The notes: generated from the letters alone by a model not told the origin. 64,000 nucleotides of DNA from a virus (IMGVR_UViG_3300047509_000103:1-64000); one strand, 5' to 3'. Counted from the stretch's first letter, positions 5,190-31,375 are shown. Numbers and translations are program-made.

Positions 5190-5953
5190 GGTGTCGCTCG
5201 CTTAAAAGTGAGAACCCAGATCCACGGGTTGCTATCCCATAACGCGCGCTTGGCATTGATCGAATCCCACAATTTCTGGAAGTCATCGCGTTCAGCCTTG
5301 CAGCCCTTTTCGTTGCAATCAGAACAGCCATCTGGCCCATAGCAGAATCCGTTCAGCGGCTTGATGCCTTCCGCTATTGCATCATCGGCGCTGATGTCCT
5401 GCAGCCGCTGAACGCGCACGTCGGTGATCTCAAGCGTGAGGCGTGAGGCCCATCGGTGCATGTGGATGGCGGTTACGGTTTTGCCAAACCGCCCGACGCA
5501 GTGCTCGTAGATCGGATGTGGATATTTCCACTCGCTCAGTGAGCGCTTTGCTTCGTCGGCTTTGTAGACGAGAAAATCTTCACCAGGCTCGGCTTCGGCC
5601 ATCACGCGCGACATCCAACGCTGATAACGCGCACCGTCTTTCGGCCTGCTACTCTCGTTGGAGCGCGGCGTGTGCCAGTCCTTTGGGCGATCAGGCTGTT
5701 CCCAGTATGTCGTCGTCTCGCGCACCCAGAGCCGATCACCTGGCTCGCCGTAAGGGCAACTTAGGTCCATGTAGTCCAGCGTGTCCGGATTCTTAAAGAA
5801 GTTTCCAGGATCGCCTGCCACCACAGTACCCATGTATTCGGTGAACGGTTCACGCAGCTTGATCAAGCGCCGCGTTTGCGTTTTGCTGCCGTCGAGCAGT
5901 GATCTGACCATCGGCGCCGAAAACAATATTGGTCTTTCCTTCACGGCGTTCAT
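5186..5953 (-). CDS. Phage ASCH/PUA-like protein
   Basis: KERPILFSAPMVR.LLDG.KTQTRR, CPYGEPGDRLWVRET, IHM.RWASRLTLEITDVRVQRLQDIS, NPWIWV. Confidence 0.85.
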   Translation of the reverse strand: MNAVKERPILFSAPMVRSLLDGSKTQTRRLIKLREPFTEYMGTVVAGDPGNFFKNPDTLDYMDLSCPYGEPGDRLWVRETTTYWEQPDRPKDWHTPRSNESSRPKDGARYQRWMSRVMAEAEPGEDFLVYKADEAKRSLSEWKYPHPIYEHCVGRFGKTVTAIHMHRWASRLTLEITDVRVQRLQDISADDAIAEGIKPLNGFCYGPDGCSDCNEKGCKAERDDFQKLWDSINAKRALWDSNPWIWVLTFKRATP

Positions 5954-26279: not shown

Positions 26280-27367
26280 TGCAGCCGCGGCACCTGACCG
26301 CCGAGATCCTGCGCGCACTCGAAGCAGCGCCGATGACGCTGACCGAGCTGTGCCAAGCGCTCTGGGTCGTCACTGGAATCGAGGTGAGCCGTCGCCTGAA
26401 GCGCTTGGCAGCACTCGGCTACGTCCGTGCGCGCTACGTGCACACCTACACCACAAAAATCCCGATAACCAAGATCGAAGGGTTGTCGCGTGTCGTCTGG
26501 TACCTGAAGAGTCAGCCGGCACCGACGATCGATGTGCGCCGCGATCAGAAGCCGCCAGCGCTACCAAAGCGCACCAGCGAGCCACGCGCGCAGCGGCAGA
26601 AGGTCAACCCATTCGCCAACGAGCGCCGCGAGCCTGCCGAGGTACTGGCGATGCTCGCCGGCCGCACAAACTTCCTGACACCGAACGAGGGGCGATCGAC
26701 TGATGGCTCCAAGCTGGTGCCGATAGACGTTGCGCACGCCTTGCCAGCCGCATCCGACAAGTTCGGCGCAGCGGTCGCAATGGCTGTGGCGTGCCAGCGC
26801 GAGGCAGAGTGGCCAAAGGTGAACAAGTTGGGGTTTGTGCCGCTGTTGCGCGAGCTCATACGCCAGCGCGCGTTCCCTGGCGTGGTTTCTGGCCCGCTCA
26901 AGCACCGCGCCCGCATCGTGCTATGGGACGCGTTCCACGACTACATCCGCCCGAAGCAGCGGCAGTCGTTTAGGAAAGCCGCCAAAGCTGCCCGCATCAC
27001 TGAAAGCGCCTACCGGTTTCTGCACAAGTACATCACCGCATATCTGGAAGACCACAAGAACACCGCCGCTGGCGAGGCGTGTTTCTTCCTGTTCGCTCCA
27101 GCAGCAGCGAAGCGTGGCGAGCACGCACTCGTGCTAACCGACGACGAGGGCAAGGTGAGTGTGCTGCACGCGATCAATGCGCTCGAGCTGATGATCGCCG
27201 CCGACAACCTATTCAGCAGCCAGGCCGACGAGAGCGAACGCGTCGTGGCCCTGATGGCAGAAATAGCAAACGCACGCGGTCGCAGCCGATCGGTAGGCGT
27301 CTTGCGCCTGCACGGCGTCGACCATGTTGCGGTGTACATCAACCCAACTGAGGAAGCAACTGCATGA
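26279..27367 (+). CDS. Putative transcription regulator (N-terminal wHTH; possible antiterminator Q-like domain)
   Basis: ILRALEAAPMTLTELC..VSRRLKRL..GYV; SFRKAAKAARITESAY; position after VRR-NUC. Confidence 0.5.
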   Translation: MQPRHLTAEILRALEAAPMTLTELCQALWVVTGIEVSRRLKRLAALGYVRARYVHTYTTKIPITKIEGLSRVVWYLKSQPAPTIDVRRDQKPPALPKRTSEPRAQRQKVNPFANERREPAEVLAMLAGRTNFLTPNEGRSTDGSKLVPIDVAHALPAASDKFGAAVAMAVACQREAEWPKVNKLGFVPLLRELIRQRAFPGVVSGPLKHRARIVLWDAFHDYIRPKQRQSFRKAAKAARITESAYRFLHKYITAYLEDHKNTAAGEACFFLFAPAAAKRGEHALVLTDDEGKVSVLHAINALELMIAADNLFSSQADESERVVALMAEIANARGRSRSVGVLRLHGVDHVAVYINPTEEATA

Positions 27368-27603
27368 AAAACATCACAGGTTTCGTTCTGAGCTTGGCGA
27401 TCGGCATCGCCGCCGGCGAGATCCACAACCGGCTGCACGCCGCGGCGCCGACAGTGCCAGCACCGATCACCATCACAGCAACCGACGCCCTGGGCAACGT
27501 GCGCACCGGCACCGCGACCTGGACGAGCATGGACTACAACGCCAACGCGATCACCATCGCCTACACGCACGACACGCTGACGTGCAACGGGTTCGAGCCA
27601 TGA
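27364..27603 (+). CDS. Small exported protein
   Basis: GAGG RBS, signal-like N-terminus. Confidence 0.6.
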   Translation: MKNITGFVLSLAIGIAAGEIHNRLHAAAPTVPAPITITATDALGNVRTGTATWTSMDYNANAITIAYTHDTLTCNGFEP

Positions 27604-27605
27604 CC

Positions 27606-27900
27606 ACCCAACCAGCGATGACAGGCGAGGAAGTGCTGGATGCGATGCTACTCGCTCTTGCTTGAGAGGGACTGTGATGGCCAATAAGAAGGTGAATATT
27701 CCAGAAGGTTGGGCTTTGGTGCCAGTCAATCCCACCAATAAGCAGTTTATGGCTGCCGAGAAAACAGGGTTTCATTCTTACACCGGAACGTTCTGCCTTG
27801 ATCCTTTCGCGGTTTACGAAGCGATGATTAAGGCAGCGCCGAAGTACAAACAAGCGAGGCAGCCATGACCCAACCAGCGATGACAGGCGAGGAAGTGCTG
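27606..27900 (+). repeat. 33-bp direct repeat (27606-27638 and 27868-27900)
   Basis: ACCCAACCAGCGATGACAGGCGAGGAAGTGCTG twice. Confidence 0.9.
27677..27868 (+). CDS. Hypothetical phage protein
   Basis: IPEGWALVP..PT...YEAMIKAAP motif. Confidence 0.7.
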   Translation: MANKKVNIPEGWALVPVNPTNKQFMAAEKTGFHSYTGTFCLDPFAVYEAMIKAAPKYKQARQP

Positions 27901-28257
27901 CGCGAATTGGATGATGTTGTGGGAGTGCCTGTGCCGGTCGGCCCTTACGGCAAGAAATTACATCGCATCCGCACCGCCGTCGCCTCCCTGCTGGCCGAAC
28001 GGGATGGGTTAAAGGTGGAGAATGAGCGTATCGCTAGATTTGCCGAAATAGGATCGCTTGATAGCTGGATACGGCTTTCTGATGACGACAAACGCAAGTG
28101 GTTCGTGATGTTCACTGATCGTGAAGCTGAGTACCGAGAAATTATCAGAGACTTGTGCGAACTGAGACAAGAGGGCTGGAACATCTGCACAAAGCCTGTT
28201 TGGCAGGAACGGGTACAGAAAGCGTGGGCACGCGCGTTCGGGTTGTTCGAGCCGTGA
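27865..28257 (+). CDS. Hypothetical protein
   Basis: GAGG RBS, overlap with upstream stop. Confidence 0.65.
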   Translation: MTQPAMTGEEVLRELDDVVGVPVPVGPYGKKLHRIRTAVASLLAERDGLKVENERIARFAEIGSLDSWIRLSDDDKRKWFVMFTDREAEYREIIRDLCELRQEGWNICTKPVWQERVQKAWARAFGLFEP

Positions 28258-28357
28258 CCCCTACCGCTGCCACCCAAGGCTAGTGAGTGAGTGTTAGAAG
28301 CGCGAAAAGCTCGTTGATTTGAAACCTGGCCTTACTAACTTACTTTGAGGAATCGTT

Positions 28358-28828
28358 ATGGGACGTGAAGTGAAACGAGTACCGATGGATTTTGATTTTC
28401 CGATTGGCGCGTCGTTCGCGGATGCTGAATACAACAAGCACTGCGCGACGTGTGACAAGGAAGACCATGACGATTGCGAGTGGCCTTTAAATGATCCGCC
28501 GACCGGCGAAGGTTGGCAGCTTTGGCAGACCGTTAGCGATGGTCCGATCAGTAAGGTCTACGCGACCGCCGATGAACTGATCGACTGGATGTGTCAGCCC
28601 GTGCCGAAGGAAAAACAAACACACAGTTGGCGTGATCCGCGCGAAAACCCGGAGTACCCGCACATGCCATGGGCGCAGGGCTGGCGCAGAGAAATAGCAG
28701 AGCCGTTTGTGAAACAATGTGGATGGGCACCGAGCATGATTGTCTGTGGGGGAAAGGTGATGGATGGCGCAACGGCAATGGTCGAAGGACTCGACAACTC
28801 GGTTAGTAATCCCGGTTCAACAGAGTGA
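28358..28828 (+). CDS. Hypothetical phage protein
   Basis: MGREVKRVPMDFD, PPTGEGWQLWQTVSDGPIS; GAGG RBS. Confidence 0.8.
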   Translation: MGREVKRVPMDFDFPIGASFADAEYNKHCATCDKEDHDDCEWPLNDPPTGEGWQLWQTVSDGPISKVYATADELIDWMCQPVPKEKQTHSWRDPRENPEYPHMPWAQGWRREIAEPFVKQCGWAPSMIVCGGKVMDGATAMVEGLDNSVSNPGSTE

Positions 28829-28900
28829 GGGATTTTCGCGCTCTTTCCATATGGCTGGATTTACTACCGGGATAACTAACCTAACTTGAGGAAAACTGAA

Positions 28901-29575
28901 ATGAAAGCAAAAGCGAAAACCAATGTAAAAGCGAAAACTGGCCCGATTGAAATTGCTGTGATTGCGGATCGTTCCGGATCGATGTTGTCAATCGTAGACG
29001 ACGCAATCGGCGGATTTAACGAGTTCCTTGCTCAGCAGAAGAAGGAAAAGGCACCGTCCAATGTGACGCTGCTGTTGTTCGATACCGCGTTCGACTACTA
29101 CTGCAAAAACCAGCCGGTCAAGGATGTTGTACCGCTGAATCGTACCACCTTCGTTCCGCGCGGTAGCACGGCTCTGAACGACGCCATTGGTCGCACGCTG
29201 GCTGACCTTGAGGCTCGCGCACCAGCAAAGGCCATCATCTGCATTCTGACTGACGGCCAGGAAAACGCCTCGCGCGAGTTCACGACTGCGCAAGTGAAAG
29301 AGAAAATCAAGGCAGCGGAAGCGCGCGGCTGGAACGTCGTGTATCTGGCCGCTAATCAGGACGCTTTTGCGGTCGGCGCTGCGTTCGGGATCAACGTACA
29401 GAACACCAGCAACATCCAGGCGACTGGCGCGGGCATGCGCGGATTCAGCGCATCTCTTTCAACCGCAACGCAAAACTATGCGGCGACCGGATCGGCAACG
29501 ATGAGTTCAACTGGAGAGTCAGCATCCATGCAAGCGACCTACGACGCAGCGCTCAAGAAACAAAAGGCGAGTTAG
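28901..29575 (+). CDS. von Willebrand factor A domain protein
   Basis: MIDAS DRSGSM, PRGSTALNDAIG, ILTDGQENAS, YLAANQDA. Confidence 0.9.
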   Translation: MKAKAKTNVKAKTGPIEIAVIADRSGSMLSIVDDAIGGFNEFLAQQKKEKAPSNVTLLLFDTAFDYYCKNQPVKDVVPLNRTTFVPRGSTALNDAIGRTLADLEARAPAKAIICILTDGQENASREFTTAQVKEKIKAAEARGWNVVYLAANQDAFAVGAAFGINVQNTSNIQATGAGMRGFSASLSTATQNYAATGSATMSSTGESASMQATYDAALKKQKAS

Positions 29576-29643
29576 TAATCCCACCGCCTGAGCGCGTTAG
29601 CTGTTCGCGCTTTTGACAAGCGCCTATTGAGAGAGGTGAGGAA

Positions 29644-29934
29644 GTGAAGCAGGTATTGGTGGAAGTGGATATAGGCTTCCATGGTGCGTGGGTTGTCCAT
29701 CGGCGCGTTGTCGATTGGTCTTATTGGAACGGTGACGTTTACCGCGCCATGATTCAGCAGGCGATTGACGAATACACGCGCATCTACGGATGGCGAGGTC
29801 CGCATGGAGCGAAGTGGATGCTGCAACACCGAGAAAACTGCGTTAGACATTCCGCAACGGGACCGTATGGCCCCATTCGCTTACCGACTGAACCAAAGCC
29901 TATTTCACTTATAGATTACGAGGCAACCCCATGA
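29644..29934 (+). CDS. Hypothetical protein
   Basis: GAGG RBS, GTG start. Confidence 0.55.
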   Translation: MKQVLVEVDIGFHGAWVVHRRVVDWSYWNGDVYRAMIQQAIDEYTRIYGWRGPHGAKWMLQHRENCVRHSATGPYGPIRLPTEPKPISLIDYEATP

Positions 29935-30254
29935 ACACATCAGCGGTCAAAACGGATAGGGCGAGCGTGGAGGCGATGGTGCAGTGGCTACGTGATTTCG
30001 GCTATCTTGATCATGGACGACTGCTAGAGGCCCTGCTCGCCGAGCGTGAGAAGGCGGACACGCAGTACGCGCTATTGCTGGCCGCGAGTAAACAGGGCGA
30101 GAAGGCGCACGAAATTCGCGCCAAGATTATTCACGAACTGGAAACCAAGCTCGCCGCCGCCGAAGCCGAGCGTGAGGCGCTGCGCAAGGGCGAGTACATT
30201 TGCAAAGAATGCGGGTTGCGCAAAAACGCACAGAGTGAGCCGGCGACGTTCTGA
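29931..30254 (+). CDS. Hypothetical protein
   Basis: Coiled coil plus C-terminal CxxC. Confidence 0.65.
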   Translation: MNTSAVKTDRASVEAMVQWLRDFGYLDHGRLLEALLAEREKADTQYALLLAASKQGEKAHEIRAKIIHELETKLAAAEAEREALRKGEYICKECGLRKNAQSEPATF

Positions 30255-31375
30255 TGAAAGCCCTGCGCCTCAAAGTTCACCCCGAATCGTGGCCTTGGCT
30301 AGATCAGGCAGCGCGAGAGGTCAATTTTGCTTGGAACTTCTCGAACGAAACTCGCCACAAAGCCGCGCACCCGTTCTTCGGTAAGCCACGCTACCTGTCT
30401 GGATGGGACCTGGACAAGCTGGCCACCGGAGCTGGCGAAGTCCTGAAACGGATCGGCACGGATACCATCTGCCGCGTCAATAGCGAGCTTGTAACCAAGT
30501 GCAAGGCAGTCCGGCGTTCAAGGCTGCGTTGGCGTGTCAGTGCTGGTCCGCGTCGTTCGCTTGGTTGGGTGCCGTTCAAGTCGGCCAACCTCCGCCGACA
30601 TGGCAACGCAATCCGATTCCGTGGCAAGACATTCCGCGTATTCAATGCCGGATTGCTCACTGGCGCGAAGCTGCGACAAGGGTCGTTTTCGCAGAATGCG
30701 CTTGGTGAATGGTTCATCAACATAGCGGTTGAAACCGCCTCTACGGACGTACCGGCAGAGCACGCCGTCGTCGGCATTGACCTTGGCCTCAAAAGCGCTG
30801 CAACAACGTCAGACGGCGACGTGCTTGAAGCCAGTCAGTTCTACCGCGGCATCGAGCCACGCATTGCCCAGGCGCAGCGTCGCGGCCACAAGCGGCAGGC
30901 TAAGCGGCTGCACCTGAAAGCTAAGAACCGGCGCGCTGACGCCCTGCATAAGTTCAGCACAAAGATCGTTGCGCAGTATCAGAACATCCGCATCGGCGAC
31001 GTGAGCAGTTCCAAGCTGGCGAAGACCAAGATGGCAAAGTCCGTCTTGGACGCTGGCTGGTACATGCTCAAAACGCAGCTTCAGTACAAGGGCCAGCAGG
31101 CCGGTCGCAGCGTTGAAGTGGTCGATGAGGCATACACAACACGCGCATGCAGCAACTGCGGAGCCTTAACCGGCCCAGCAGGTTTGGACATGCTCGCTGT
31201 AAGGTCGTGGCGCTGCTCGGATTGTGGAACCGAGCACGAGCGGGACGTTAACGCCGCTCGCAATATCGCCATGACCCCGCCGAGATGCCGGCGGCCATCT
31301 GCGGGAACGAGAGCCAGAACTGGCGTCACGAGGATCGAATCGCAGGCGGTTGAGCATCATCGGAGAATTTTATGA
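30254..31375 (+). CDS. tnpB: RNA-guided endonuclease TnpB (rearranged RuvC-II type), no transposase
   Basis: GIDLG (RuvC-I), IGDV / VDEAYTT, CSNCG..CSDCG zinc ribbon, RDVNAARNI (RuvC-III). Confidence 0.93.
   Translation: MKALRLKVHPESWPWLDQAAREVNFAWNFSNETRHKAAHPFFGKPRYLSGWDLDKLATGAGEVLKRIGTDTICRVNSELVTKCKAVRRSRLRWRVSAGPRRSLGWVPFKSANLRRHGNAIRFRGKTFRVFNAGLLTGAKLRQGSFSQNALGEWFINIAVETASTDVPAEHAVVGIDLGLKSAATTSDGDVLEASQFYRGIEPRIAQAQRRGHKRQAKRLHLKAKNRRADALHKFSTKIVAQYQNIRIGDVSSSKLAKTKMAKSVLDAGWYMLKTQLQYKGQQAGRSVEVVDEAYTTRACSNCGALTGPAGLDMLAVRSWRCSDCGTEHERDVNAARNIAMTPPRCRRPSAGTRARTGVTRIESQAVEHHRRIL

Follow-up and report, generated by a model that had tools for sequence, protein, structure and literature searches.

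Gain and loss of accessory genes in phages, such as those for anti-defence and host takeover, are usually ascribed to illegitimate recombination, and few defined joints are known. T4-like phages carry PeSLs (promoter-early stem-loops), conserved motifs at ORF borders, and recombination between the copies leads to modular shuffling (Arbiol et al. 2010, PMC2839356; Comeau et al. 2014, PMC4122927). In Acinetobacter plasmids, dif modules are flanked by inversely oriented XerC/XerD sites, and the pdif site is 28 bp long (11 + 6 + 11) with palindromic inner arms (PMC6449649). MICs and MITEs derive from insertion sequences, as do the Tn3-family MICs of Xanthomonas (PMC4337579). In this study, we describe sites in a phage genome for which PeSL is the closest tested precedent.

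The window analysed here is a stretch of 64,000 nucleotides, the first 64 kb of an 80,857-bp IMG/VR virus record that is estimated to be 93% complete; the phage was designated as G000. The genes around the sites are carried on the + strand. Upstream of the sites lie genes for a DnaD-like protein and a DnaC-like loader, a VRR-NUC nuclease and a MarR-type HTH protein, and downstream lie TnpB without a transposase, a lysozyme and the structural genes. This gene content places the sites in the early/accessory region of G000. The G+C minimum of the window is in the 28-30 kb bin (0.53 versus ~0.60). Host assignment through the terminase was rejected, as its 55% identity to two alphaproteobacterial MAGs is too weak for naming a host.

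We found that the three sites of the window belong to one family of boundary elements, asymmetric and ~50 bp long, by which small accessory genes are framed in the early regions of a few unrelated temperate soil phages. The features of the locus are listed in Table 1.

Table 1. Boundary sites, cargo genes and associated features in the window.
Feature	Position	Strand	Basis
W1, forward (5') boundary site	28292..28340	+	family profile 34.6 bits, E 3e-9
Leader/RBS motif ACTAAC.TA..TTGAGGA, gene 1	28334..28351	+	direct reading
Cargo gene 1, 156 aa	28358..28828	+	no Pfam/PHROG family
W2, inverted (3') boundary site	28798..28849	-	family profile 32.9 bits
Truncated forward site of vWA gene (half site)	28866..28881	+	direct reading
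Intergenic palindrome, W2 + half site	28801..28881	.	long hairpin, -33.2 kcal/mol, z = -3.4
Cargo gene 2, vWA-domain protein, 224 aa, phrog_7371	28901..29575	+	family match
W3, inverted (3') boundary site	29568..29618	-	family profile 34.5 bits
Terminator-like hairpin, W3 middle + box A (GAGCGCG / CGCGCTT, then TTTTG)	29590..29616	+	7-bp stem, MFE + centroid

W1 consists of an outer flank, box A (AAGCGCGAAAAGCT), a 20-nt middle and box B (TTACTAACT), and it ends 17 nt 5' of the ATG of gene 1. This gene stops within the middle of W2, so that its last 28 nt are overlapped by box B and the middle of that site. The TAG stop of the vWA gene is inside box B of W3. The half site ahead of the vWA gene comprises the inner 7 nt of the middle and box B (TAACTAAC), with box A absent. 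The leader motif of gene 1 also occurs at 28875-28892, ahead of the vWA gene. Single sites folded no better than shuffles, and among the 3' sites the terminator-like stem was found only at W3.

These observations agree in most points with an earlier reading of the same DNA, referred to below as the original prediction. It had reported three 43-bp sites, and the coordinates and strands of all three were recovered exactly. The 15/16 inverted match between the half site and 28801-28816 and the common ACTAAC.TA..TTGAGGA motif of both RBS regions were likewise confirmed, the latter by direct reading. Each gene had been placed between inward-facing boxes; box B does face the cargo, and on the 5' side of the vWA gene this box belongs to the truncated site without box A. 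The motif had been seen nowhere else in the window, which held, and no further copy was present in the remainder of the 80,857-bp record. The 20-nt middles had been called largely unrelated. They do differ, yet they are not wholly unrelated and fall into subfamilies within one phage.

The pattern AGCGCGAA-N25-TTACTAAC, searched with up to 2 mismatches, gave three matches in the window, all of them exact, versus 0.04 expected. The chance level was obtained from shuffles, and 0 of 100 shuffles reached three matches, by which a chance origin of the three sites was ruled out. TTACTAAC alone occurred in the window only at these three sites (0.25 expected). AGCGCGAA alone was not enriched (11 versus 6.6), and therefore the signal is the pairing of the two boxes at a fixed distance.

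We searched for the site in other genomes by exact-anchor scans, which returned 6 viral stretches, 48 and 53 prokaryote stretches in two scans, and 82 metagenome stretches. True and chance copies were told apart by scoring the positions outside the anchors. True copies scored +21 to +32 bits and chance copies -4 and below; L114 and L124, neither of which had been used in building the matrix, scored +7. The true carriers besides G000 were G001, G002, L143, L140, L114 and L124. G001 is a complete temperate phage of 36.8 kb with a tyrosine integrase and 9 sites. G002 (52.9 kb) has 5 sites and forms a family with L143 and L140, to which it is related. The four contigs designated by L, which come from soil or rhizosphere metagenomes, were the true ones among the 82 metagenome matches (4/82). 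The sample therefore covers three phage lineages, all uncultured, two of which are known from one contig each. The 48 and 53 prokaryote matches were all judged to be chance by their non-anchor positions, and the readings as a host motif, a host IS or a host promoter were rejected accordingly. A double match in an Acidobacteriota MAG proved to be a tandem gene duplicate. No true copy was found with exact anchors, which diverged ends could escape, in one genome for each of 185,579 prokaryote species. A pattern search across phage and host genomes had been proposed in the original prediction; on the phage side it found the motif in two further lineages and four soil contigs, whereas on the host side, with one genome for each of those species, it found none.

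The carriers are otherwise dissimilar. G000 and G001 have no protein in common (blastp E<=1e-3), and the only proteins common to G001 and G002 are an Erf annealing protein and a YqaJ exonuclease, whose genes adjoin sites in these two phages and lie between brackets. Near the sites, no convincing match to a protein common to the carriers was found; two weak local alignments of the 130-aa gene that flanks the sites in G000 were dismissed because different segments were matched. This 130-aa backbone gene has no close relatives in the collections searched, so that no empty-site comparison is possible for the G000 backbone. In cultured phages, similarity was found only to Erf and the exonuclease; the site was absent, and the comparison gave no host assignment. 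It was also absent from 11 loci of distant relatives of G001 and G002 identified by YqaJ (24-65% identity), from two other viral contigs with homologues of gene 1 (L058 and L059, 54% identity), and from 80 vWA loci of other phages. A tie of the site to a particular cargo was rejected on the basis of these gene 1 homologues and vWA loci.

The family alignment contained 20 sites. From outside to inside, the consensus of ~50 bp comprises a TGG box, box A (GAAGCGCGAAmAkC), 15-16 variable nt, GTGGCG and box B (TTACTAA), and the alignment follows the pattern nTGGnA-GAAGCGCGAAcAgC-N15/16-GTGGCG-TTACTAA. The unit is ~50 bp because conservation reaches ~6 nt outward of the AGCGCGAA box, into the TGG box. 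GCGCGAA and a C four bases further were invariant in the 20 sites, and the GG ahead of box B and CTAA were nearly invariant. The spacing between the boxes was 25 nt in most of the aligned sites and 24 nt in six. The conserved boxes lie roughly on one helix face. No dyad core beyond the 7-nt TTACTAA was found in the alignment, and Rfam gave no match to the site. A sequence-only profile built from the 20 sites regained all of them (E 1e-8 to 1e-11) and found nothing else in G000 or G001. In L143, L140 and L114, it added weaker copies, most of which consist of box A alone.

The layout of the sites is the same in all phages in that box B, the TTACTAAC box, faces the abutted gene. Forward copies end 1-29 nt (mostly 15-20) ahead of the start codon, beside the Shine-Dalgarno sequence, and inverted copies start a few bases from the stop codon or overlap the ORF end. 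Some sites fall within open reading frames. Orientation alternates strictly along the genome, at 4/4 copies in G000 with the half site counted, 9/9 in G001 and 5/5 in G002. An independent repeat finder recovered the pairs as inverted repeats of 44-55 nt (76-95%). The 9 sites of G001 form four complete brackets (333-494 bp), with one site left at the contig end. A bracket holds one gene, rarely three, and all bracketed genes are co-directional with their neighbours. The cargo consists of varied phage accessory genes, which encode a phrog_3054 membrane protein, phrog_13468, phrog_1843, a zinc-ribbon protein, an RlaP-like nucleotidyltransferase, a radical-SAM enzyme and the vWA protein. L143 carries four consecutive forward copies without inverted partners, besides box-A-only copies, and solo forward or box-A-only copies are likewise present in L114. 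The unpartnered forward copies of L143 indicate that the forward copy is the commoner unit and that the bracket is not obligatory.

Two further observations were made on the sequence next to the sites. Two forward sites of G001 (L061 8174-8206 and 15878-15910) are alike for 33 nt past box B, and this common part contains a Shine-Dalgarno sequence and a mini-ORF of 4-5 codons that overlaps the GTG start of the cargo. In L143, a 221-aa open frame (5256-5921) has a Lar-like restriction-alleviation domain at residues 6-79 and then crosses three box-A copies in both orientations; it may represent several small cassettes read as one ORF.

We compared related genomes at the sites. The backbones of G002, L140 and L143 are 90-98% identical, and at the same 3' site these three have three different genes ahead (79, ~68 and 228 aa), with homology beginning within the first 1-2 bases of box B. 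At the other end, where G002 and L143 have a degenerate 5' site, their box A and middle are alike, and divergence sets in at the expected position of box B. L140 is without a two-gene segment of ~540-600 bp that is present in G002 and L143 and that begins 2-3 nt ahead of box A of a 5' site there. The RlaP-like gene of G002 and its 3' site are replaced in L143 by the radical-SAM gene, and the break is at the outer edge of the site. Within the G001 genome, the 5' site of a cassette lies 2.9 kb from the 3' site of a different cassette; the two sequences agree at 95% over 44 nt and part inside box B. A 1158-nt contig from a different soil study carries a vWA gene 89% identical to that of G000. The match extends to the last base of box B (29578), after which a different middle and a ATTTTCGC-type box A follow. 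This indicates that the cargo and the box are common to both, while the other parts of the site are those of another backbone. Each of the seven junctions (7/7) coincided with a site edge, on the inner side of box B or on the outer side of box A; this result is weaker than it looks, because breakpoints must fall where shared sequence ends. Taken with this limit, the junctions imply that the sites are places of accessory-gene exchange.

A vWA homologue (P0003), encoded on a JGI contig, is 94% identical, and run X2 contained only parts of the vWA gene. In run X3, joints of 28282 to 28886 and of 28367 to 29617, with short sides (24-30 nt) and unknown letters between, give weak hints that cassette 1 is absent there. 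At the L140 segment, TGGC (4 nt) is present at both junctions (L140 689-701 versus L062 9382-9924 and L143), which could reflect a microhomology deletion or a very short duplication. The two enzymes that replace each other in the bracket of G002 and L143 are a nucleotidyltransferase of the RlaP-like (RNA-repair pathway) type at L062:9987-10730 and the radical-SAM enzyme at L143:6909-7850.

Since other phages carry the motif and relatives vary at its edges, the original prediction stands on these two points, and variation bounded by the sites favours its cassette reading over chance. It had proposed recombination sites on which a system for capturing or inverting gene cassettes would act in trans, had suggested a search for a co-occurring recombinase, and had named paired protein-binding or RNA-processing sites as alternatives. 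The cassette-like variation was found; the recombinase and the inversion or excision were not. No recombinase family was common to the site carriers: PF00589 matched only in G001 and not in G000 or G002, and PF00239 matched in none of G000-G002. Inverted or excised forms and strand-switch joints were absent from the contigs of three soil runs, in which rare forms can be hidden.

We consider that the sites are boundary modules for accessory-gene shuffling, functionally like PeSL but arranged in inverted pairs, and give this reading a probability of about 0.45. The constancy of the spacing and of the boxes in unrelated phages implies that a protein recognizes the site, and a sequence-specific one would read the conserved boxes 24-25 nt apart. 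The short shared boxes would serve as crossover points at which co-infecting phages exchange accessory genes. Shuffling would probably proceed by general or short-homology recombination, as the Erf and YqaJ genes adjoin the sites in two phages. The longest exactly shared stretches are 10-16 bp, which is short for homologous recombination, and recombination alone explains neither the fixed spacing nor the conservation across unrelated phages. Direct repeats are readily deleted from genomes that encode an annealing protein together with an exonuclease. We infer that the copies alternate because recombination between inverted neighbours cannot remove the framed gene; the gene would be protected, and the copies would still be usable for exchange with another genome. 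This single inference fits shuffling and a dedicated recombinase alike.

The main rival, although we hold it to be unlikely, is such a dedicated recombinase that acts in trans. In an undescribed phage system for site-specific cassette exchange, the enzyme would come from the host or from an unrecognised phage gene, cross over in TTACTAA, with box B as the core and box A as an accessory arm, and dock, swap or flip single accessory genes. Inversely oriented sites would permit module exchange without loss, as in the Acinetobacter dif modules. Such an enzyme would account for the fixed 24-25 nt spacing of this asymmetric two-box site and for the clustering of junctions in box B, and strict alternation in three phages is the arrangement described for pdif (PMC6449649). 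Four independent junctions fall at box B within ~2 nt, the middle of the site remains with the backbone as the cargo changes, and target duplications are absent. However, the restriction of PF00589 to G001, the lack of PF00239 in G000-G002 and the lack of a protein near the sites common to the carriers all argue against it, as does a core without dyad symmetry of the Xer, Cre or Hin type. The own site of a host recombinase would be expected in host genomes, whereas the 185,579 prokaryote species genomes hold no copy. The inverted or excised form is absent from the contigs of the three runs, and other junctions lie at the outer edge of box A. A purely cis-regulatory role is quite improbable. 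A regulator or RNA polymerase factor would bind the forward site at the start of a gene and the inverted site at its end, as an operator pair, a loop or a polar roadblock, and the mosaicism would be unrelated. This would suit forward copies that always lie 1-29 nt from a start codon beside the Shine-Dalgarno sequence, the solo forward and box-A-only copies of L143 and L114, boxes roughly on one helix face, and a hairpin ahead (5') of one forward site in G001. On the other hand, a simple consensus scan, from which the rules of the host may differ, found no sigma-70-like -35/-10 in or near the sites and, within 27000-31000 of the window, one match away from them. Box B is without a -10 signature, and the transcription start that it would imply would cut off the Shine-Dalgarno sequence; readings as sigma-70, sigma-54 or ECF-type promoters were rejected because of unsuitable spacing or signature bases. 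Nor do the phages have a regulator in common, the motif is absent from the bacterial genomes searched, and seven breakpoints coincide with site edges.

The remaining two readings are less probable still. The flanks of 16S and 23S rRNA form a processing stem for RNase III, and by analogy the copies might pair across the gene in a polycistronic early transcript as a processing or stabilizing stem, to which we give a very slim chance. Cognate pairs in two G001 cassettes are 76-80% complementary over 44-55 nt, and 28801-28881 folds well. For an RNA stem, covariation would be predicted, whereas the box sequences themselves are conserved. The best-matching pair of G001 is a non-cognate one, folding of single sites does not surpass that of shuffles, Rfam has no match, and solo copies exist. 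In most cognate pairs the middles lack complementarity, which weakly disfavours the RNA processing that the original prediction had named as an option. The slimmest chance is that the copies are terminal inverted repeats of cargo transposons without a transposase (MIC/MITE), mobilized by an IS elsewhere. Inverted repeats of 43-55 bp do surround single genes of 330-750 bp, and the site is common to unrelated phages. A stop codon lies inside the repeat, as it does in the terminal repeat of many IS elements. Against this, target duplications were not convincing at any of nine brackets: at 8 of the 9, the 12 nt next to the box-A ends contained no direct repeat of 4-9 nt, and at the remaining one a 4-mer was judged to be chance. 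The 5-nt CACTC at slot 1 of G002, 1 and 8 nt from the two ends, was taken as chance because the offsets differ. No autonomous parent element with these ends was found in IMG/VR or, by exact-anchor scans with one genome per species, in 185,579 prokaryote species. Furthermore, the sites stay as the cargo changes, and the same cargo occurs with a different repeat middle.

We next compare the sites with the known systems. Like PeSL, the phage sites are short conserved motifs at the borders of non-essential ORFs in plastic genome parts, and the breakpoints of indels and replacements between relatives lie at the motif, as was observed here. For both, recombination between the copies is the mechanism proposed. 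PeSL is a sigma-70 promoter with a terminator hairpin, whereas the phage sites have no detectable promoter and, apart from the stem at W3, no terminator. PeSL direct repeats can loop out mini-circles, whereas neighbouring copies are inverted in G000, G001 and G002. The phage site also differs from PeSL in being asymmetric and bipartite with fixed spacing, and in being common to phages without other similarity. With dif modules it shares accessory modules between inverted asymmetric sites that alternate along the array, the same module in different contexts, the absence of target duplications, and a recombinase that is not in the module. However, the phage site is ~50 bp long with boxes 24-25 nt apart and has no 11-6-11 or dyad core, for which reason a dif-type site was rejected. 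In addition, pdif matches the chromosomal dif of the host, whereas the phage site has no counterpart in the bacterial genomes searched.

MICs and MITEs resemble the brackets in having cargo genes between terminal inverted repeats and no transposase. The phage brackets, in contrast, lack target duplications and a parent IS, and their repeats act as backbone rather than being borne by the cargo. A classical transposon was rejected on the same grounds: no convincing target duplication, no parent element, and sites that stay while the cargo changes. In attC, R'' RYYYAAC is on the 5' side and R' GTTRRRY on the 3' side of the folded site. The phage cassettes resemble integron cassettes as single promoter-less ORFs with imperfect inverted repeats ending in CTAAC / GTTAG-like sequences, and the intergenic element 28801-28881 folds as a hairpin. 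However, the polarity of this element, GGTTAGTAA ... TAACTAACC, is opposite to that of attC, as GTTAG is outermost, and the 5' and 3' phage copies are usually not adjacent. An integron was rejected because of the reversed box polarity and the lack of IntI (no PF00589 match in G000 or G002). Invertible segments of the Gin/Hin/Cin or shufflon type are not supported either: PF00239 is missing from G000-G002, the contigs of three runs, which can hide rare inversions, show no strand-switch joint, and the genes are co-directional.

The motif is a defined joint common to unrelated phages that marks places of single-gene exchange, and boundary motifs of other phages are not known to be laid out in inverted pairs. 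If the site is read by a protein, the motif could help to find cassettes in metagenomes and to test how the exchange of genes among phages is channelled. If no protein reads it, the PeSL idea would extend beyond T4-like phages, and very short boxes would suffice to structure mosaicism. If a dedicated recombinase acts there, the system would correspond, in phages, to dif modules and integrons, and its site would be related to neither dif nor attC.

Several minor observations were made in the same genomes. In the early region of G001 (L006 3500-12782, 9.3 kb), 0 sigma-70-like matches were found, versus 5.6 +/- 2.7 in shuffles; the host of G001 may have different promoter rules. The TnpB gene of the window (30254-31375), 640 nt 3' of W3, encodes OrfB_IS605 and a Cas12f-like TNB domain without TnpA, and its start and stop overlap the adjoining genes. 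TnpB was rejected as the agent or common factor, as it is not among the G001 genes tested and the TnpB family is without inverted ends. A perfect 33-nt direct repeat (27606-27638 and 27868-27900) spans the RBS and start of two adjacent small genes, and a partial third copy (72%) lies at 29631-29666, at the start of a 96-aa gene 3' of W3. In a source-like run, the unitigs break at this 33-nt repeat. The piece 27871-28411 had a depth of 4.6, about half of the 9-11 in its neighbours, which suggests a second allele upstream of W1.
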